A DNA stretch of 63,394 nucleotides, filler included, from Globobulimina sp. (taxonomy: Eukaryota), in NCBI GenBank assembly GCA_003354225.1. It is 43 parts of 43 records of this genome, joined end to end, with 100 filler letters (N's around TTAATTAATTAA, not from the genome) between each part and the next. Parts side by side here need not be neighbours in the genome. Positions count along the whole stretch, not along the records: positions 23,641 to 25,017 come from PIVH01017671.1; 42 more parts are not named here. One strand, 5' to 3'. Both the position numbers and the translations under genes were made by a program. The notes beneath the pieces are model-generated. The model was not told the DNA's origin and did no database searches. It worked only from the letters and a program-made list of their open reading frames with translations. The stretch's first letter is position 1. The number at the start of each line of letters is the position of its first letter. This document shows, one piece after another, positions 2,568 to 60,225 of this stretch.

Positions 2568-3042
2568 CGAATTCAACAAAATAAACGCTTTTCTTTTTGT
2601 CATTAATTTATTTAATTAATAATATCCTCACTCTCATTCTTTTCCGTTTTTGGTGCTTTATTTGGAGGACAATTAGTATCAACTTACAGAAGAAAGAAAA
2701 CTGTCGGGGAGTTGTTGAACATAACTGTTTTCTGTACAGTTTTCCCAACAAAACATGGCAATGATGTCATGGTCTTTTCATGTTTTGTTATTCTCAATGT
2801 TTAATATTCTGAATGGTAGATTCAAACTTGAGTCAAGAATAGTACATGGAATTGCGNNNNNNNNNNNNNNNNNNNNNNNNNNNNNNNNNNNNNNNNNNNN
2901 TTAATTAATTAANNNNNNNNNNNNNNNNNNNNNNNNNNNNNNNNNNNNNNNNNNNNTTTTCAATATTTCAATATCAACTTATAAAAGTTCAGTAAAATTT
3001 ATTTCTTGTTTATCATTGATAACTTGTATTGTATTTCTAATA

Positions 3043-4334
3043 ATGAGTGCACAAAAGAAAGGTGTGGTAACGCGTTCCTTGAATGCCTTAAAAACGGAAA
3101 TAAATCATCATGAAAATGATGCCCTTTTAGCCATTGAAGGGGATATACATTTATGCGATGTACCAACTACTCAAAATCATTTGCTAAAAGTGGGCAAAAA
3201 ACTTTCGTTACTTACGACCAAATTTAATAAATTAGAACTTGCTACGACCGAGTATGCAGTTGCTATCGAAGGAGATGTACCTAAAACTAATGAATTTGAA
3301 ACATTCCAAGATGACGAAGCTCCCTCATGGGCTAAAAGTAACGATTTAATTGCACGTTTTTCAATATTAAAGGAGCAACTTTCGGAGCATAAAAAAGATA
3401 AAATCGCCGAGTTAGAAATTCAAAATCAGTTAGCTCGCGATAATAACGATTTACGGCGTCAACTTGCAGCACAGCCCAATGTTGCAGCACTTCCGGTACA
3501 GGCAAATATCGGTCCACCCCCAGCAGTGCAAATAAATGCACCCCCTGTTACTACTTCCGTTCGTCTGTCAAAATTGGAAATTGCCAAATTTGATGGCAAT
3601 ATTTTAAAATGGAGCGAATTTTGGGATAGTTATGAAGCTTCAGTACATAAAAATGCTAATTTATCGAATGTTGAAAAATTTGCTTACTTACGGACAAAAT
3701 TATTAAGTACAGCTTTAGACGCAATTTCGGGTTTACAACTTTCAAATGATAACTATCCGGTCGCTCTGGAAATACTAAATTCTCGTTTTGGAAATAAGCA
3801 AAGAATTATTGATGCTCATTATATTAGTTTAACCGATTTGCCGACTTCTCCAAATCAAATTATTAAATTACGTACACTCTATGACAGCATGGAGAAGCAT
3901 TTTCGAAGTTTAGAAGCAGTCGGCGAAGAAGTTAACTCACAGCGTCAATTAGTATCTTTAGTTAAGACAAAATTACCGGAAGAAGTTATGCATCAATTAA
4001 ATATGCAAATCGATGACGACGAAAATTGGACTGTTGAAAAACTACGTAAACTTTTGGGAAGGTATATTCGTTCACGTGAATCAATAGTCCCAATACCTAC
4101 TACACCTAAAAATGCATCGGCTTCGAGTTATGATTATAACTCACAAAATCGATTTTCTCATAAACCTGATAATCGCGGTTTTTCTACTCCCAATTTTCGT
4201 AAACCTAATTCATTTGATTATTCCCGTCCTCGCAGTTTCCCATTTCCAAAACAATACACTGGTAGTGCATTAATGTCTGCCCAACCTAAAAGAAACTGCA
4301 TTTTTTGTGACAAATTGCACTGGTCTGACGAATG
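3043..4334 (+). mobile_element. BEL/Pao LTR retrotransposon gag (DUF1759), 3' truncated at the start of the Zn knuckle
   Basis: VRLSKLEIAKFDGNILKWSEFWDSYEASVHKN..LSNVEKFAYLR..L..A..AISGL..NY..A..IL..RFG and CIFCDKLHWSDEC; intronless. Confidence 0.9.
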
Positions 4335-17732: not shown

Positions 17733-18177
17733 GTTCTCCATTATATCTTTGTTTATGTCGATACAATGCTAATACTTTGCTGTCACACCACTGATTTGTG
17801 CAACTTTTTATTTTCCCCACACCGTAATCCATAATAATTTTAGCTGTTTTTGAGGACAATCCTTTTGCTAAGAACTGCTGAAACAGTTGTTTGAAAATCA
17901 AGTAATCTGAGTTATGAATGCAATTTGAGGCAGTAATACCAAACATTGTGTTAAACGCATCCGTAATGTCCGTAATTTGTGGTTTGGATAATTTACGTTT
18001 TTTAAAATCGTTACAATGGATCTGACCATCTGATGTAATTAATATGCGGTTTATTTCTTGAATTAATCTTTTTTTGGTTCTTCCTTTTCCGGTTTGCTTA
18101 ATGAATTTAAAGACGGCATTTGATTTTAACATATTCCGCACTTCTTTCATGGAGCTGTCTGCTCTTAATTCATCCAT
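17733..18177 (-). CDS. Hypothetical protein, paralog A of an inverted pair (3' truncated)
   Basis: Shares MFGITASNCIHNSDYLIF...RYNGE with 18559..19109. Confidence 0.6.
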
Positions 18178-18558: not shown

Positions 18559-19109
18559 ATGGATTTCTCACAAAAACACCACATGTTTGGTATTACTGCC
18601 TCAAATTGCATTCATAACTCAGATTACTTGATTTTCAAACAACTGTTTCAGCAGTTCTTAGCAAAAGGATTGTCCTCAAACACAGCTAAAATTATTATGG
18701 ATTACGGTGTGGGGAAAATAAAAAGTTGCACAAATCAGTGGTGTGACAGTAAAGTATTAGCATTTTATCAACGTAAAGCAAGATATAATGGAGAACAACA
18801 TTATTGTCAAAGTTGTTTGAGTCAGAAACGGAAATGTACATATTTAATATATGAAAATGGACAAAAACAACAATGTAATAACAACATTTGGTGTACAACA
18901 AATAAGTTCAAATTATGTGAGGTTTGTGGGACGACATTGATATGTTCAAAACACTTTGATGACTTAATCAGATGTTCGACATGTGGCAGTATAGCATGTT
19001 GTAGTAATGACAAATGCGATTTTATTCATTGTGAAAGATGTGAAAGCTTACTTTGTAACAAATGTTTGCAATCTGCTGATGATTTATATGGTGGATATAA
19101 AAGATGCAA
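18559..19109 (+). CDS. Cys-rich (multiple CxxC) protein, paralog B of the inverted pair, lacking A's N-terminus
   Basis: CQSC, CEVC, CSTC, CERC, CNKC motifs; 214-bp near-identity to 17733..17946. Confidence 0.6.
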
Positions 19110-20686: not shown

Positions 20687-22063
20687 TCTCTATTTTTTTC
20701 CCCAGTGAATGCAAGTTCAATTTTCTCCTTTTCTCTCTTTACAAAGAATACTGGCAAGAAATATTTAATATCCTCCACAAAAAACCTTGTCCCCCATCCA
20801 TTATTGCATAAATATACTCTGATTTCATTTGCAGAGAAACACTGAAATGAAAATGTTAAACCAAATGGTTTTTGTGTATTTATATTTATATCCTGTTTCT
20901 CGTTTAATTTCGGCAATGTACTGATTCTTAAATTTTGTATCAACGATTCATTTAACAATTTTCTTTGATTTGCTTCAAAACATTTCCCTTTGTCATTTAA
21001 TTGAAATGCATAACATTTATCCGTTGCTTTGCCACCGCCATACCTTCGATCAATGACTAATATTCCACGCTGGTTCCGCTTCCCTGCAAATATTGTATTT
21101 ATCGCTTGCAACATTGTACGGTTTGCTGTACCAAGCGAAATATCCATACAATCCATCTTATTTTTGATTTTTGATAACCTTTTACTAATATCTCCAATAT
21201 TTACAACTGAATTCGTTTTTTCTTCACAAAATGTATCTTGTTCATCATCACTGTTCTTCGCATCATCAATATCATCCTCATCCTCATCATCCCAATTAAT
21301 CAATTTATATTTTCTGGGGATAATAATCACATCAATTTGGGCCGGCATTGTCTGCGAATTCTTTTGCTGCACAAATTCCTCAATAAATGTATAACACTGC
21401 AATATATATTCACTAATTTGCATAATATCATCGTCAACTTAATACAGTACAATTTACAAAATAAAATATGTATAAAATAATATAAATATACATATATACC
21501 GAAAGCCATGCGTGCTTTCATAGGAACATTATGTAATAACCGCCGTGGAAATACAGTGATCGCCGCTTGGCACATTTCCAAAAACTTCCTCTGCTGCGAC
21601 TGTGTATAGTCGCTCAACCAACTCACAATTCCTTTACATTTCTCCTTTACAAATTGTGCGGGCTCAATTGCCAGCTCTTGAAAACTTTGATTGAATGCCA
21701 CCTCAAACTCTTTACCAGTGTACTGCTGCCGCTTTAATTTTAATATTAACCGCTTTCGTTTCTGTATTCGATATCTATTAAAGGCGTCGTTTAAATATAT
21801 TAACAAAGGTTGATTACGGTTTTGTTTCCCGATGGCGATGACGGCATAGGTTGCTTTATCTAATTCTTTATCAACGTTGCAACCGCCACCCGCTGGCATC
21901 AAATCGGGACAGTATTTCAGTAATTGCTCTTTAATAAATTGCAAATCCGCATCCTTCACTTTGATGTTATATTTTTTAAATATCTCTGCAAAGCCAACGC
22001 CTTCATCAATGATGCCATTATCCGCAGTCTGCTCTGCTTTGCCATCATACTTTCCTTTAATGG
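20687..22063 (-). CDS. Two-exon hypothetical protein (both ends truncated)
   Basis: Two long ORFs joined by an AT-rich intron-like block near 21400-21495. Confidence 0.6.
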
Positions 22064-23186: not shown

Positions 23187-23641
23187 GATAACATATATAA
23201 TCCATAATTTTTTTGTTTTTTTTTTGTTTTGTAATAACGTACCCATTCCATCTCAAATATAGAGCTTTGTTTATAACGGCAGTTTATAATTTTTAAGCAA
23301 AAAAAAACTTGTGCCTTAAAAAAAATAATAAGCCCGAAGTTTTTTGGAATTTGTGCGATGTGCGATGTCTGTTTATTTATGTGCTGATATCAATTCAATT
23401 GAAGAGCCTTTGCCATAAATAGTGACTGCTGCTCTGTATTTGCTTTTTTTTATATTGAATGCCTTTCCATAATCTTTATTATTGATATTAAATGATAATA
23501 ATAACGCATCCAAATCAATATTCATTGTAATAATATCACCNNNNNNNNNNNNNNNNNNNNNNNNNNNNNNNNNNNNNNNNNNNNTTAATTAATTAANNNN
23601 NNNNNNNNNNNNNNNNNNNNNNNNNNNNNNNNNNNNNNNNG

Positions 23642-25017
23642 TACTGGCAAAATGATGTATCCATCCTCAAAAAGGCATTGGAAATCTACCAAGAGCGTAT
23701 GATGGAACTATTTGATGGACTTCCCCCATTGGACCATGTCACTCTACCCTCATACTGCAAGTACGTCTACAGAAAGCTCATGATGCCTGAAAACTCAATC
23801 GCTATACTTCCACCAAATGGTTATGGCAAATGCAAATATTCGAAAACTGGTATTGCCTGGCTGGAGTGGCAATCATATCAACGTGGAATGCATATCAAAC
23901 ATGCCCTGAATAGCAATGAAGTCAAAATTGGAAAGTATCTCGTGGATGGCATGGGATTCGATCCTTCTGGCCAACCAACTGTATTTGAACATAATGGATG
24001 TGTAAGCAGCTGTTTATATATTACATGCTGAGATGATATGTATTAATTTCAGTACTTTCATGGTCACGATTGTATTTTGGACCGTCAGAAAACGTGTAAT
24101 GGAATGACCATGGATGAAAAAGATCATGAAACCATTGAGAGAGAGAAATTTCTGCGCAAAGCTGGCTACAAAGTCATATCAGTCTATGAATGTGAAGTAA
24201 AAGCTGAGATGGAAGCTGACGCTGAAATGAAACAATTCATGAATTTGGTCAAAAAGAATGCAACACCATTGAATCCCAGAGACGCCCTCCATGGTGGTCG
24301 CACCAATGCCATCAGAAAATGTTACAGACCAAAACCTGGAGAAGAAATTCTATATTTTGACATAAATGTAAGTTGAGATACCTGATGACATATACTGAGA
24401 TACATTGGTTTTCAGTCGTTGTACCCATCGGTCAACTGGTCAACAAATGGTGAACTATGGCCCATTGGCCACCCCCAAATCTACCTGCACGACTTCCCTG
24501 CCATGGACGATATTTTTGGTTTGATCAGAGGAACATTCAAACCACCTGACCAACTCTACCATCCAGTGCTTGGTGTTGCATCCAGTGATGGTCGTTATGT
24601 CTTTGGACTCTGTGGAAAATGTATTGAGGATCAAGCCACTGAACACTGCAACCATTCTGATGAGGAGAGGTATTATCAAACTAATCTTAACAATAAACTT
24701 GCATGATTGTTTACAGATACCTCAAAGGGACTTTTGTCTCAGAAGAAGTCAAACTGGCATTGGAGAAAGGCTATGAAATTGTCAACATTGAGCAGGTGTG
24801 GCATTGGCCTGAAGACCAGAGAGTTACCACTCTATTCAAAGAATACATATCAAGGGCTTACAGAGAAAAGGTTGAAGCATCTGGTGAGAGTCATAACTTT
24901 CCAAATCTATCACATATAACTATTTCAATTTTTCAGGCTGGCCTGCTAACATAGAGCAGCTTATCACTGAAAATGGAATGGCCCATCCTGACACTCAGAT
25001 TGCCATCAACTCTTGGT
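23642..25017 (+). CDS. Polinton/Maverick (adintovirus-type) protein-primed DNA polymerase B, partial, with four spliceosomal introns (24002..24052, 24368..24415, 24670..24716, 24884..24936)
   Basis: The spliced frame restores YWQNDVSIL (ExoIII), VDG..VFEHNGC|YFHGH, DALHGGRTN, YFDIN|SLYPS (motif A), PIGHP, GTFVSEEVKLALEKGY and KVEAS|GWP. Confidence 0.92.
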
Positions 25018-25117
25018 NNNNNNNNNNNNNNNNNNNNNNNNNNNNNNNNNNNNNNNNNNNNTTAATTAATTAANNNNNNNNNNNNNNNNNNNNNNNNNNN
25101 NNNNNNNNNNNNNNNNN

Positions 25118-50220: not shown

Positions 50221-51391
50221 TCTTGAATGACTTGAATAACATTTGATTAATTTGTATATTTACAATCTGATTATAAAATAAATTGAGTTATAATAAATAG
50301 ATTGATAAATAAATTGAATTCCTAATGAATAGATTGCATCGCATTGACATTTGCAATGTGAATCAGTACATATCGGACACCCCTAATCAACTGAATATCC
50401 TTTCGATCTAGAGCATTTTCCCCACGTAGAGTATAGATATTCATACAATAATATTCAAGTTGGAATCAGTATTAGGAAAAGCATTCCATATATAACATAT
50501 GTTACCATTCCATACCATTATTACGCATAACCGTCAAGAGCGTTTTGTATATGAAATGATTAAAATTAATAGAATATGAAAAAAAACATTTAAAATATAG
50601 AGACAATAATATAGACACAATAATATAGACACAATAATAAAATAAAAGCTATATATATATTACTCAAAATTAACTTGGTCTTCATTCATATCAGCATTAT
50701 ATTTGCTTTCTATGTTGAAAATCACATTTAATTTTGACTTTATGCATTTGCAACCACAAACATAATCACAACGATTACAATGGCAATACAAATGGAAATG
50801 GCAATAAGTTTACCAACAAATTTGGCAATCCATTTGCCGATTGGTGTATAAAACGTAAACGATATAACAGCAACACAAAAACCAGCAAACTTTACCACAA
50901 ACTCTGTCGATTGTAGTGGCGCACTCAGTGAGTCTAAATCATAATCTTGTATTAGCTCAACCGTATCGTAAACAGCCAATGCGCCCCACAATATCGCATT
51001 GAAGAAATTTAACATTTTCGCCGATGTCTTTTCATATAAATTATTTTTTTTGTTAGTTGATACTTGATACTTGATACCATGGCAGTTGATACCTGTTACC
51101 GCCGTCGTTAATGCGGAACACGGTACCATCACTACACTCAGTCACTAAGTCGAACACGAATCCACAACAGCCGTTGCCTGGACACAAGTCATCGAAACTA
51201 AAAGCACAAATCTCAAGCAAAAGCAAAAAAAGAACAAAGAAAAGACATTATTACATGGCAAATGTCAATGCGATGCAATCTATTCATTAGGAATTCAATT
51301 TATTTATCAATCTATTTATTATAACTCAATTTATTTTATAACTCAATTTATTACATACAAATTAATCAAATGTTATTCAAGTCATTCAAGA
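50221..51391. mobile_element. ~1.17-kb cassette bounded by ~134-bp inverted repeats
   Basis: 50221-50354 is a near-perfect reverse complement of 51258-51391. Confidence 0.75.
50740..51248 (-). pseudogene. Frameshifted membrane/secreted protein gene inside the inverted-repeat cassette
   Basis: Frame breaks in a T-run of the signal-like segment and at a triplicated GTATCAA. Removing one 7-mer joins LPWYQ to VSTNKKNN. Confidence 0.5.
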
Positions 51392-54542: not shown

Positions 54543-54819
54543 NNNNNNNNNNNNNNNNNNNNNNNNNNNNNNNNNNNNNNNNNNNNTTAATTAATTAANN
54601 NNNNNNNNNNNNNNNNNNNNNNNNNNNNNNNNNNNNNNNNNNTTCAATGAAACATCAATTTTTTAAAAGTCTTTTTTATTTTTCAATCTAAACGCAAATA
54701 CAAAATGTAAAAGAACTTAAAATACATAAATACAATTTAATTACATAAATACATTTTAATTAAAATAATACGAATTGATAAAAATTTGTTAGTAACATAA
54801 AAAATTTTCATAATACACT

Positions 54820-56018
54820 TCAATAGTTGGGTGCATGATAATCATCGGGTTTCTGAGCCCGGTATGCAGTCAATTCGCTATATTGGTGTTGGACTTCATC
54901 TTGTTCTATTTCTGAATTACCTTTCGTTTGTGTACTTGCATTTCTCTGATCTTGTTTTTTCTTTCGATAATGTCCATTTTTGGCACTATTCTTGATCTGC
55001 TTAATATGATGTAAATCTCGAGGTGACAAATGATCGGCTTCGTCTTCACTGTCTTGTGCATTCTGTTGAAGTCCTGACATCTCAGGCCATGCTGCTGCAT
55101 AACTGGCAGATGTGCATTTAGCACGTGATCGTCCCAATGGGTGCTTTTGTCCATACATGTCAATAGTTGATTCCATAAAATCAAATCCGACTTTGTGGCG
55201 TTGCAGAAAATCTACACCCAAAATAACCAATGGTAAATGAGGGTCATCTGGCACAACATGTACTGTTTGTTCAAATACCGTATCGCCGATAGTAAAAGAC
55301 ATGACGACTTTACCCAAAATATCAATTGAACCCCCAAAACCGGCCATTTTATTGTGATGACAACTACGCAATTTGGACATGGGAACGCGAGCAATTTTGC
55401 AAACTGATTTTTGTGCAATGGTAAGCCTTGAGCCAGTGTCGGCTAATGCGGCTAATTTGCATACTGGAGCGCGCTGTCGCAATAAATAAAGGGCTAATTC
55501 CATAGGTTGTAATACCATAACGGAATTAGGGTCAACTTCACCCTTAGGCGAAGCAGTCAACACAGTTGCATTCATAGTATCCTTATCCAACCGATTCGGC
55601 CGGACTGCACATAACTCTGGCACTGGGGAAACAAGCTTATTGGTCACCCAATCATCATTGATAGACTCAACCGACTCAGGTAATAAAGGTTGTTTGTCGG
55701 TCATTTTGGTGTGACATGACCCAAAATTATCATTTGCCAATTTAGGCATACCCGGTTCTACTTTAGGTGTTTCCATAAACTCTTTCTCGAGTTTTGCCAC
55801 CATTACATTATAACTATTTATTTGTAATTGACTCATTCTTAATGCTAAATCAGTTTTACGTTTTTCATACCTCTCTTCCTGTTGTTGTCCTTTCTCGCTC
55901 CAATGAGTCCATATGTCATAATCAGTCTTCAGTTCGGGATAATCCGCAGTTGGTACCAAATTAGGTACGAATGTTGGTAAATTGTCCCAATTATCGATTG
56001 GATATGATCTTCCTGTCT
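54820..56018 (-). mobile_element. Retropepsin (Ty3/Gypsy-like aspartic protease) ORF ending without reverse transcriptase
   Basis: AALADTGSRLTI and VILGVDFLQRH; stop at 54820 followed by AT-rich DNA. Confidence 0.78.
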
Positions 56019-57494: not shown

Positions 57495-58268
57495 NNNNNN
57501 NNNNNNNNNNNNNNNNNNNNNNNNNNNNNNNNNNNNNNTTAATTAATTAANNNNNNNNNNNNNNNNNNNNNNNNNNNNNNNNNNNNNNNNNNNNGTAGGC
57601 CATATCGGTATGTTCTAAAAACCGTTTGCAGTCGAAATTTTTTTTTCTTACTTTTCGAGAAAACTGAATTTTTCGAAAATTTTCGATAATTCCCTATGCT
57701 TCAACATTGAAAATTTTGGTCGGCTAAAGGCAAGCCAATTCAAGCGCTAGAAGATTTTCCTTCTGGGAATTAATTGACCCTTCAGATGTCTTTAAAAAAC
57801 CGTTTGCAGTGAAATGAATTTTTTTCTTTTTTTATGAAAAAAACGAATCTCAAATTTGTTCGACCACCTTTAGTAATAAAAAAATTCGAAAAATGAATAA
57901 ACTTCGGTCAATATTTATAGTATAGGATCTAAACTTAATCTTAGAAATAAAAATAAACAGCTCAACTTACCACAAAAAATCTCAAGTGAAACCAAATCGA
58001 ACCCGAAAAAACCGCGCACAAATCATACTGTATCCGTTATACACAAACAGCGCCCGCCGCCTGCTCATGAAAGTCGCTACCTTTGTGTTGGCCTAGTGTA
58101 GTCTTGTGTGTTATTGTTTTACTTTGTTGTATCCCTCACCCCACCTGTGTATGCATCGTTTGGTTGTGTTGTGCGATGGGTGCTTTAGAAAATATATAGA
58201 TGATATCTAAAGCTCTATTGCACGGCATATTCTGACGGGTGTTTTTACCAAGAAACAAGAATAATAAT

Positions 58269-58733
58269 TTGGTCGTCGATTACCGTGATTCCACAGTCTT
58301 TAGGCAATTTTGAGACCTAAGACTGTTGTTATCATGGTGATTGATGATCGATCAACGTCAAAGATTATTGGTGATCGATCAATAAAGAAATATTTGGTCG
58401 TCGATTACCATGATTCCACAGTCTTCTAGGCGATTTTGAGACCTAAGACTGCAGGTATCATGGTGATTGATGATCGATCAACATCAACATTTTGGTGATC
58501 AACAGCAACGTTTCAAGAAAAATATTTGATTGTCGTTTATCGTGATTCCCACAGTCTTTAGGCGATTTTGAGACCTAAGAACTGTTGGCATCATGGTGAT
58601 TGATGGTCGATCAACGTTTCGGTGATCAAGAATGAGTACACAAGAAACAATAAGTTTGTTTGAGCCCGTAAGTGAACAGTCTTAGACAGTATTTGAGCTC
58701 TAAGGCTGTTATACTTATGGTCTTAAAACGAAC
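58269..58733 (+). ncRNA. Cluster of four paralogous ~80-nt stem-loops (pri-miRNA/hairpin-RNA-like)
   Basis: Hairpins at 58271-58349, 58396-58475, 58528-58608 and 58654-58733; ~34-bp stems, ~11-nt loops, G.U-rich pairing on the + strand. Confidence 0.55.
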
Positions 58734-59069: not shown

Positions 59070-60225
59070 AACAGATGTATTCTGCCATATTGCTGTGGAA
59101 GCAGGCACAATTACACCTGCAATGACCCCAAAGATAAAAAAACTTGCAGCTAAACAAGACAAACCTGCTGGAAGTGAAGCGACGTAAGATTTGATTGAAG
59201 TGTTTCTTCTCTTGTGAATCTTCTCTATTTTACCTTTTTAGTGTCAATACACATGGAAGTGTCTCAGATGTAAATTCGCCCAGGTCGGCTCATGGTGTTG
59301 GTCTTCCTGAAGATCATGTGGGATCATCGGATAGATTCTTCCAAGACCTTGAAGAAGGAGATAAAGCTCGTCAGGAGTAAGTGGATATTCTGGAATAAAT
59401 AACCCTTTCTTAGTGCAATCAGATGGGTATTCTAGAATAACCAAAAGTCGATGCAACCAGTCATTGTTTAGTCATTGGCTATTTGCAACTGGATGCAGTT
59501 GTAACATCTATTGGTTGCCTCCAACTTGGTGGCTAATACCGTATATCGCAAGAACTGTTAGCTAGGAATAGGTTATTCTACTTGTTATGTGTGCTATGGA
59601 TCTAGCTACGGTATTTAGTATTCTAGAATAACCAAAAGTCGATGCAACCAGTTATTGTTTTGTCATTGGCTGTTTGCAACTGGATGCAGTAGTAACACAT
59701 CTATTGTTGCCACCAACTGGATGGTTTATACCATATTATCGCAACAACTGTTAACTAAGAATTGGTTACTGTACTTGTTACATCTGCTATAAGTCTAGCT
59801 ACGGTTTTGGGTATTCTAGAATAACCAAAAGTCGATGCAACCAGTCATTGTTTAGTAGTCATTGGCTGTTTGCAACTGGATGCAGTAGTTACACATCTAT
59901 TGTTGCCACCAACTGGATGGTTTATACCGTATTATCGCAAAACCTGTTAGCTAGGAATAGGTTACTGTACTTGTTACATGTGCTATAAAACTAGCTACGG
60001 TATTGGGTATTCTAGAATAACCAAAAGTCGATGCAACCAGTCATTGTTTAGTAGTCATTGGCTGTTTTGCAACTGGATGCGGTAGGCTGAAATTGTATTG
60101 TTGGCAATTTATTGGTATTCTGTATTCTGGCTGGAATCAGTGTGATATGGTGTGAATCCATCACTTTCTTTTGCAGGAATGAGCGTCTAAAGGCTGAATT
60201 GGTTGCTCAACAGCAATTGGTCACT
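59070..60225 (+). CDS. Eukaryotic hypothetical gene, three exons (introns 59184..59241 and 59377..60176)
   Basis: Splicing gives ...PAGSEATVNTHGS...GDKARQENERLKAELVAQQQLV with GTAAG donors and pyrimidine-rich AG acceptors. Confidence 0.6.
59427..60081 (+). repeat. Intronic tandem repeat, ~191-196-bp unit x3.4
   Basis: GTATTCTAGAATAACCAAAAGTCGATGCAACCAG at 59427, 59618, 59811 and 60007. Confidence 0.92.

Follow-up and report, generated by a model that had tools for sequence, protein, structure and literature searches.

A protein-primed DNA polymerase fragment of Polinton type interrupted by four short GT-AG introns in a Globobulimina sp. assembly

A polymerase gene fragment in five exon pieces

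The stretch of DNA analyzed here (the window, 63,394 nt of the Globobulimina sp. assembly GCA_003354225.1) contains one contig, PIVH01017671.1, predicted to encode part of a family-B DNA polymerase of the protein-primed group (pPolB), of the Polinton/Maverick/adintovirus kind, an assignment supported by homology, and the coding sequence of this fragment is divided by four short introns. The window consists of 43 unrelated contigs of 1378 to 1375 bp each, ordered by size and joined by N44-TTAATTAATTAA-N44 linkers, and pPolB is matched in this contig only. The linkers bordering it (23541-23640 and 25018-25117) are artificial, which makes any inference from neighboring sequence across them void, and since the finding occupies one entire contig, this pPolB copy has no genomic flanks. 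The gene is truncated at both contig ends, so that an internal (middle) fragment is seen. The features of the contig are the following:

23641-25017, plus strand: contig holding the pPolB fragment, 1377 bp, GC content 0.41, linkers on both sides
23642-24001, plus strand: exon piece a, 120 codons, phase 0; begins with Y..ND of the ExoIII motif and also contains the Vsr-like insert's first half, ending ..NGC
24002-24052, plus strand: intron 1, 51 nt, GTAAGC..AATTTCAG (TTTCAG end), phase 0; within the Vsr GC..H motif, right after GC
24053-24367, plus strand: exon piece b, 105 codons; the Vsr-like insert's second half (..HGH.C .. GYKV..YEC) plus the GGRTN block, ending ..YFDIN
24368-24415, plus strand: intron 2, 48 nt, GTAAGT..GTTTTCAG (TTTCAG end), phase 0; splits polymerase motif A (D..|SLYPS)
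24416-24669, plus strand: exon piece c, 254 nt; SLYPS of motif A, PP..LYHPVL, and a C..C .. C.H Cys/His block, ending ..DEE(R)
24670-24716, plus strand: intron 3, 47 nt, GTATTA..GTTTACAG (TTACAG end), phase 2
24717-24883, plus strand: exon piece d, 167 nt; positions 316-363 of the PF03175 profile
24884-24936, plus strand: intron 4, 53 nt, GTGAGA..TTTTTCAG (TTTCAG end), phase 1; interrupts a Gly codon (EAS|GWP)
24937-25017, plus strand: exon piece e, 81 nt, left open where the contig stops and heading towards polymerase motif B

Excision of the four GT..AG segments (51, 48, 47 and 53 nt) turns 23642-25017 into 392 codons with no stop. An earlier, sequence-only reading of this DNA had proposed these introns and a stop-free joined frame, and its coordinates and lengths hold; it spoke of four small open reading frames (ORFs), where the actual count is five exon pieces. 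The intron phases are, in order, 0, 0, 2 and 1, the acceptor ends in TTTCAG in three cases out of four, and the GC content of the exons is 0.428 versus 0.26-0.35 in the introns. All four segments have the GT..AG ends of U2-type introns, and taking them out restores the reading frame along with collinearity to intronless homologs. Apart from their splice signals and AT-richness, the four do not resemble one another. The four GT-AG introns are real as gene structure; from that structure we infer splicing itself.

We searched for paths that open the contig by skipping GT..AG segments 40-60 nt long. The contig as it stands requires exactly four such skips, and none of 200 dinucleotide-preserving shuffles could be opened with four or fewer. 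Together with the gap-free alignment of the junctions described below, this bears out the earlier view that the splicing pattern is unlikely to be due to chance. The path search also offers a 65-nt alternative at junction 4, and the open frame by itself therefore leaves that junction ambiguous. It is fixed by two homologous proteins (P0002 and P0083) that read through ..ASGWP.. at this point, and by a related DNA record, L004, that continues the frame into motif B. The other 42 contigs of the window were considered as natural controls for open paths and dropped, their paths using weak, arbitrary GT..AG pairs in non-coding sequence.

The introns of the pPolB contig differ in style from the rest of the window. 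The pattern GT[AG]AG..TTT[CT]AG, with a length of 40-62 nt, occurs three times on the plus strand of this contig; the other 42 contigs, both strands counted, have three occurrences between them.

Identity of the polymerase

The joined product aligns with P0002 (1183 aa, uninterrupted) over 390 residues at 38% identity (E 7e-68) and with P0003 (1377 aa, uninterrupted) over 375 residues at 34% identity (E 1e-62). The alignment to P0002 has no gap at any of the four junctions (NGC|YFHG, DIN|SLYP, EER|YLKG and EAS|GWP), and that to P0003 has none at junctions 1-3 or in the residues leading up to junction 4. The Pfam profile DNA_pol_B_2 (PF03175) matches each of the five full-length homologs scanned (P0002 with 146.9 bits, P0003, P0009, P0025 and P0037), with E-values of 1e-28 to 1e-53. 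At E<=1e-3, a search with exon piece a alone yields 998 representative proteins; the number falls to 125 at E<=1e-10 and to zero at E<=1e-30. Exon piece b gives weak DUF559, RAP and PF03175 matches, and its search returns three proteins among 25 candidates: P0001 (190 aa, 71%), P0002 and P0003.

Conserved residues of the family are largely retained. Within the span of the fragment, ten full-length homologs share 39 invariant columns, and the fragment keeps 35. Three of the four missed columns lie at its N-terminal edge and look like alignment artefacts; among those missed, one is outside the fragment, and the ExoIII Tyr is correctly paired by BLAST. Exon piece a aligns with the invariant residues Y626/D630/V631 and G744/C745 of P0002. 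The ExoIII motif is present as Y..ND at 23642-23656, corresponding to Y626/D630 of P0002, and motif A as D-I-N|S-L-Y-P-S across junction 2, corresponding to D851/S854-P857. The span excludes ExoI, ExoII and motifs B and C. The start of motif B is visible only in the copy L004, which extends exon piece e by ~30 codons to ..LAKLVLN, aligned with the family consensus before ..LNS.WGKFGQ.

Relatives with an uninterrupted pPolB, at 31-42% identity, have hallmark genes of Polintons adjoining the polymerase. An Adeno_IVa2-like ATPase lies directly downstream of pPolB in L002 and L003. A Pox_A32 ATPase occurs at all three of the loci L005, L006 and L009, an rve integrase at two and a double-jelly-roll (DJR) capsid at two; the capsid is found beside pPolB in L005 and L009, and L005 also has a PLA2-like gene. 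An rve integrase is paired with pPolB in L006, L009, L016 and L022. The locus L022 contains an ATPase, an integrase with rve and chromo domains and a weak match to adenovirus protease, L016 an ATPase together with rve, and L014 an ATPase. Hallmark genes beside these distant relatives mark the family as Polinton/Maverick-type, and the earlier assignment to that type stands on this context (integrase, ATPase, capsid and protease genes) and on the PF03175 scores of the homologs.

The position of the fragment within the family was examined in a quick IQ-TREE tree of 77 rows, midpoint-rooted, from which high-scoring segment pairs (HSPs) of <300 residues and rows with stops were excluded. The fragment groups with P0009, P0018, P0028, P0052, P0057, P0080 and P0117 at an SH-like approximate likelihood ratio test (SH-aLRT) value of 98. 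Five of these partners are 1105-1451 aa long, which counts towards an uninterrupted gene in relatives beyond the closest ones; P0052 has 617 aa and P0117 1342 aa. Of ten clusters of relatives that were looked up, none bears a name. No close relatives were found in a viral contig collection by scans with exon piece b and alignments of pieces c and a, and an alignment of the fragment's own clade found nothing above 27% identity among the viral contigs.

A side observation concerns the loci L013-L032 of the genome_contigs collection, where Polinton genes of eukaryotic type, namely pPolB, an A32 ATPase and an rve integrase, are filed under bacterial metagenome-assembled genomes. The labels are Rubritalea sp. 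(12 loci on 11 contigs of one such genome), Leptonemataceae, Dysgonomonas, Photobacterium, Aquimonas and Epulonipiscioides. These contigs look like mis-binned eukaryotic or viral DNA.

A Vsr-like nuclease insert

The segment between ExoIII and motif A displays an invariant G-C..H-G..C and ..W-E-C pattern. A profile of this insert finds the Escherichia coli Vsr structures 1ODG, 1CW0 and 1VSR as its top three matches (E 1.6e-4). A structural model of a relative's insert, with a predicted local distance difference test (pLDDT) score of 88.2, has 1VSR as its top Foldseek match in the PDB (E 0.012, prob 0.98, TM 0.43) and 1CW0 as the third. Of the Vsr motif, the fragment retains G, C, H, G and C. 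Profile and model thus support a PD-(D/E)xK-type segment that is Vsr-like. The likeness to E. coli Vsr (1VSR, 1CW0 and 1ODG) consists in the GC..H..C motif and the ..WEC.. strand; it differs in that the predicted domain here lies inside a polymerase, with ~18% identity and TM-scores of 0.43-0.51.

The sequence-only reading had noted a PD-(D/E)xK-like insert and held it to be typical of Polinton pPolB. The insert is borne out, as Vsr-like, while its typicality is not: the available text of Jeong et al. 2023 (Mol Biol Evol, PMC10748475) reports a VSR domain in one pPolB2 subgroup, that of marine molluscs and of Trissonchulus latispiculum, a marine nematode. By its published description, as far as that text goes, pPolB2 resembles the fragment in being a protein-primed PolB with Exo/Pol motifs and a Vsr-like domain. 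Relatives of the fragment are likewise linked to an rve integrase, and the Atlas clusters nearest to its pPolB are labelled Mollusca and Nematoda, which is a lead only.

Separately, the Vsr-like segment alone (query residues ~713-823) matches genes of giant-virus and other large viral contigs (L037-L052); free-standing relatives of the insert are therefore present in viruses.

Distribution of the introns among relatives

A close relative with DNA, L004, is a 1562-bp record from a metagenome collection. It is 93% identical in nucleotide sequence to 24537-25017 and retains introns 3 and 4, the former with one substitution and a 1-nt indel and the latter with seven substitutions and a 3-nt indel. 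Two proteins appear to record interruptions at junctions 2 and 3 as unspliced translations. P0161 (90 aa), at 80% amino acid identity across exon piece c, is an ORF of the size of that piece, bounded by junctions 2 and 3: it begins ..CFQ|SLYPS, a read-through of TTTCAG, and ends ..EER. P0001 (66-71% amino acid identity) has an in-frame insert of 57 nt, or 19 residues, exactly at junction 2, starting with VS and ending with CFQ, and it too ends ..EER at junction 3. Ends at ..EER are expected in both proteins if a stop follows within the GTAA donor. The fragments P0006, P0010 and P0142 (43-53% identical) end soon after ..GC with tails that start VS, and these ends may, as a lead, fit read-through of a GTAAGT donor at intron 1. 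Beside these stands P0150, where a 25-residue in-frame insert (..YEFQ-[25 aa]-GC..) is located one codon upstream of the site of intron 1; a retained intron at a neighboring position is one possible explanation.

More distant relatives have an uninterrupted gene. In L003, L005, L006, L014, L016, L022 and L023 the pPolB is a single ORF of 1006-1537 codons. At 12 genome_contigs loci covered by a single HSP (residues 1-368 or more), the genomic span minus three times the query length is -15 to +30 nt, and the remaining eight loci of that collection, partial or frameshifted, have no interruption of ~50 nt at any junction. Judged from these sequences, the introns are common to the close relatives L004, P0161 and P0001 and absent from every distant relative with DNA. 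This distribution suggests that they were gained on the branch from which the lineage of the fragment arose. The sequence-only reading had called the introns nematode-like, to which the three TTTCAG acceptors and the Nematoda label conform; that label remains a lead, shared with Mollusca.

The published accounts, in the parts available, describe this gene as intronless, as the sequence-only reading had supposed when it called pPolB usually an uninterrupted ORF. Jeong et al. 2023 (PMC10748475) state thresholds of >=900 codons for ORFs and >=650 aa for tBLASTn matches, from which it follows that all members of their set are uninterrupted, unlike the fragment with four introns in 1.4 kb. In the available text of Starrett et al. 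2021 (PMC8502044), the PolB of Alpha adintoviruses is composed of an OTU domain and pfam03175. The full-length homologs of the fragment resemble it in their Cys/His block at the N-terminus, their zinc-finger-like cysteines and PF03175, and at the locus L005 a PLA2-like gene and a DJR capsid are likewise present; the fragment stops short of the N-terminal region. No introns are described for adintoviruses in that text, versus four in the fragment. Barreat & Katzourakis 2021, in the portion available, report vertebrate Mavericks with intronless ORFs, in stated agreement with Kapitonov & Jurka 2006, and the accessible part of the preprint by Widen et al. 2022 gives the core genes of nematode Mavericks as intronless, with introns in cargo genes only. 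These elements belong to the same class and have the same core gene, but the core genes of intact elements are described there as intronless, unlike the fragment. According to the available section of Bellas 2023, a prokaryotic gene finder was used since protist endogenous viruses 'do not contain introns', and the introns reported for cryptophyte polinton-like viruses are, in the account available, group I introns only.

A literature search of incomplete coverage found no description of spliceosomal introns in Polinton pPolB, and an earlier description is possible. Some Repbase Polinton entries are said to list exons. The intron-split Polinton-type pPolB fragment is real, with introns specific to its lineage; a Vsr insert in pPolB is already published.

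Copies, selection and decay

The fragment and L004 can be compared over 381 aligned exonic nucleotides, where 19 substitutions are found; 11 are synonymous and 8 non-synonymous. For exon pieces d and e taken together the counts are 9 synonymous and 4 non-synonymous changes, and for exon piece d by itself 8 and 3. The 100 intronic nucleotides show 8 substitutions and two small indels. With no constraint, synonymous and non-synonymous changes are expected at roughly 1:3. The synonymous excess over this ratio indicates past purifying selection, as estimated from a small sample. The sequence-only reading had argued for ongoing selection; past purifying selection (11 vs 8) is as much of this claim as the data show, and the compared copy is itself frameshifted and truncated.

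In L004, a 2-nt deletion in exon piece c shifts the frame, and homology is lost a short way past motif B. The first 124 bases of the record are repeated at 1439-1562, giving a period of 1438 bp, as in a tandem repeat or a circular assembly. The repeated unit joins the frameshifted pPolB piece to ~860 bp of unrelated AT-rich sequence, and no tRNA was found in this filler.

Further variants were found in one sequencing run, X1, where 25 contig pieces over the fragment fall into four identity classes (6/9/6/4). A loose end in this run is the repeat junction of L004, with a word depth of ~24 vs 5-7.5 for the window-type copy. The source thus appears to hold a family of several copies, at least one of them decayed, and this combination makes us lean towards an element family rather than domestication.

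Interpretation and alternatives

We consider it fairly probable, as a joint reading, that the contig is a replicase fragment of a Polinton/Maverick-type endogenous element in a nuclear genome, with four spliceosomal introns gained in its lineage and several copies. The fragment would be an internal piece of the replicase gene of an endogenous virus-like element, residing in the nuclear genome of a eukaryote with introns of ~50 nt. The four canonical short GT-AG introns would have been acquired after the split from intronless relatives. Such an element would copy itself as DNA, so that the introns would be carried along in every copy, and production of the polymerase would need nuclear transcription and the host spliceosome. 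That this copy sits within a complete element we infer, and the lineage may or may not still be mobile. Coming from a 1.4-kb fragment without context or RNA, the claim is a lead and not a result.

Several observations weigh against this reading. Single exon pieces score below the PF03175 cutoff of 25.8 bits, with 18.6 bits for exon piece d, the best of them (E 0.00094), and 13 bits for another; these sub-cutoff matches are collinear, at profile positions 210-238 and 316-363. All six loci checked for gene context lie across the midpoint root from the 8-row group of the fragment. No DNA was found for this group, and the Polinton context is therefore seen in DNA for the family as a whole and not for the fragment's own clade. 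The copy itself has no flanks in which an integrase, capsid, ATPase, terminal inverted repeat (TIR) or target-site duplication could be seen. The sole other copy with DNA, L004, is broken, and instead of being active the family may be dying out. If the sample is mixed, the variants in X1 could stem from several organisms instead of being paralogues. No spliced joints occur among the contigs of the four runs that cover the fragment, none of which is recorded as RNA; the one run guessed to be RNA contributes a single 219-nt contig (24182-24400) that ends 33 nt into intron 2 and is uninformative.

It is unlikely, though less so than the other alternatives, that the gene is a pPolB with a Vsr-like nuclease domesticated by the host, with host-type introns and a selected host function, and that its relatives are orthologues or paralogues. 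Intron positions conserved among relatives at 66-80% amino acid identity, the synonymous excess relative to L004 and the retention of 35 of 39 invariant residues would all suit such a gene, and a density of ~3 introns per kb is host-gene-like, the core genes of Mavericks being intronless in the published accounts available. The diverged variants in one run and the frameshifted, rearranged copy, however, suit a repeat family better, and purifying selection between copies is shown equally by active element lineages. A 1377-bp contig makes neither synteny nor flank observable, and the literature search found no host-domesticated pPolB described. We judge it rather unlikely that a cellular, intron-bearing pPolB-Vsr gene family is kept for host use, with intron positions conserved among species; if it were, it would be the first host-domesticated pPolB known to us.

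That the contig comes from a free virus or contaminant, such as an exogenous adintovirus-like genome in a mixed sample and not chromosomal, seems improbable. The assembly does look mixed, with GC content from 0.26 to 0.45 across the contigs of the window and an intron style unlike that of the other 42, and the related record L004 is in a metagenome collection; but L004, frameshifted, fused to unrelated AT-rich sequence and repeated every 1438 bp, shows what is typical of decay in a chromosome, and three scans of the viral-contig collection gave no close relative. Even less probable is a dead fossil, that is, an unexpressed remnant of an element in which the four segments are chance insertions with GT..AG ends. 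The broken sister copy L004 and the lack of any run recorded as RNA over the fragment would agree with this explanation, whereas GT..AG ends in four out of four segments, a length class of 47-53 nt, a GC content below that of the exons and exactly restored collinearity do not. Nor do the failure of all 200 shuffles to open, the interruption of P0001 and P0161 at the same sites with GTAAGT-like and TTTCAG-like read-through, and 392 open codons combined with a synonymous excess.

Typical transposon-derived introns are far longer than 47-53 nt, which counts against an introner origin. A single burst of an intron-generating transposon, as in dinoflagellate polinton-like elements, is very improbable here: introners populate eupolintoviral elements in dinoflagellate genomes according to the available text of Gozashti 2025, but the four introns are alike only in splice signals and AT-richness, and their mutual dissimilarity argues against one burst.

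Other features of the window

The remaining contigs of the window are unrelated to the pPolB contig, and no repeats connecting it or L004 to them were found. An Rfam scan of the window returned zero matches. Paired inverted repeats are found in two contigs, in both cases spaced ~1.0-1.2 kb apart, and each pair is a candidate small TIR element:

17733-17946 and 18583-18796: inverted repeats of 214 nt, 97% identity
50221-50359 and 51253-51391: inverted repeats of 140 nt, 94% identity

Internal direct repeats with 83-92% identity occur in two contigs, at 59424-60085 and 58256-58629, with periods of ~190 nt and ~125 nt. Long ORFs with the look of retroelement Gag and aspartic protease, judged by eye from translations, are located at 2957-4334 (plus strand) and 54643-56018 (minus strand), and have a C..C..H..C knuckle and a D-T-G-S motif. 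At 21440-21501 (minus strand), a putative 62-nt GTATAT..TTAAG segment could connect two ORFs on the same strand of a neighboring contig; its style is unlike that of the introns in the pPolB contig. An ORF on a neighboring, unrelated contig points, as a lead, to an Atlas cluster labelled Ciliophora.

Implications

Surveys of Polintons and endogenous viruses depend on uninterrupted genes, and an intron-rich lineage with conserved intron positions would escape them. This invisibility may explain why relatives of the fragment are present in protein databases only as exon-sized fragments of 86-190 residues. If the reading of the replicase fragment as part of an endogenous element is true, it would point to an element lineage that has long been resident in one host lineage, has taken on host gene structure and depends on the spliceosome; otherwise the same gene may testify to a domestication event.

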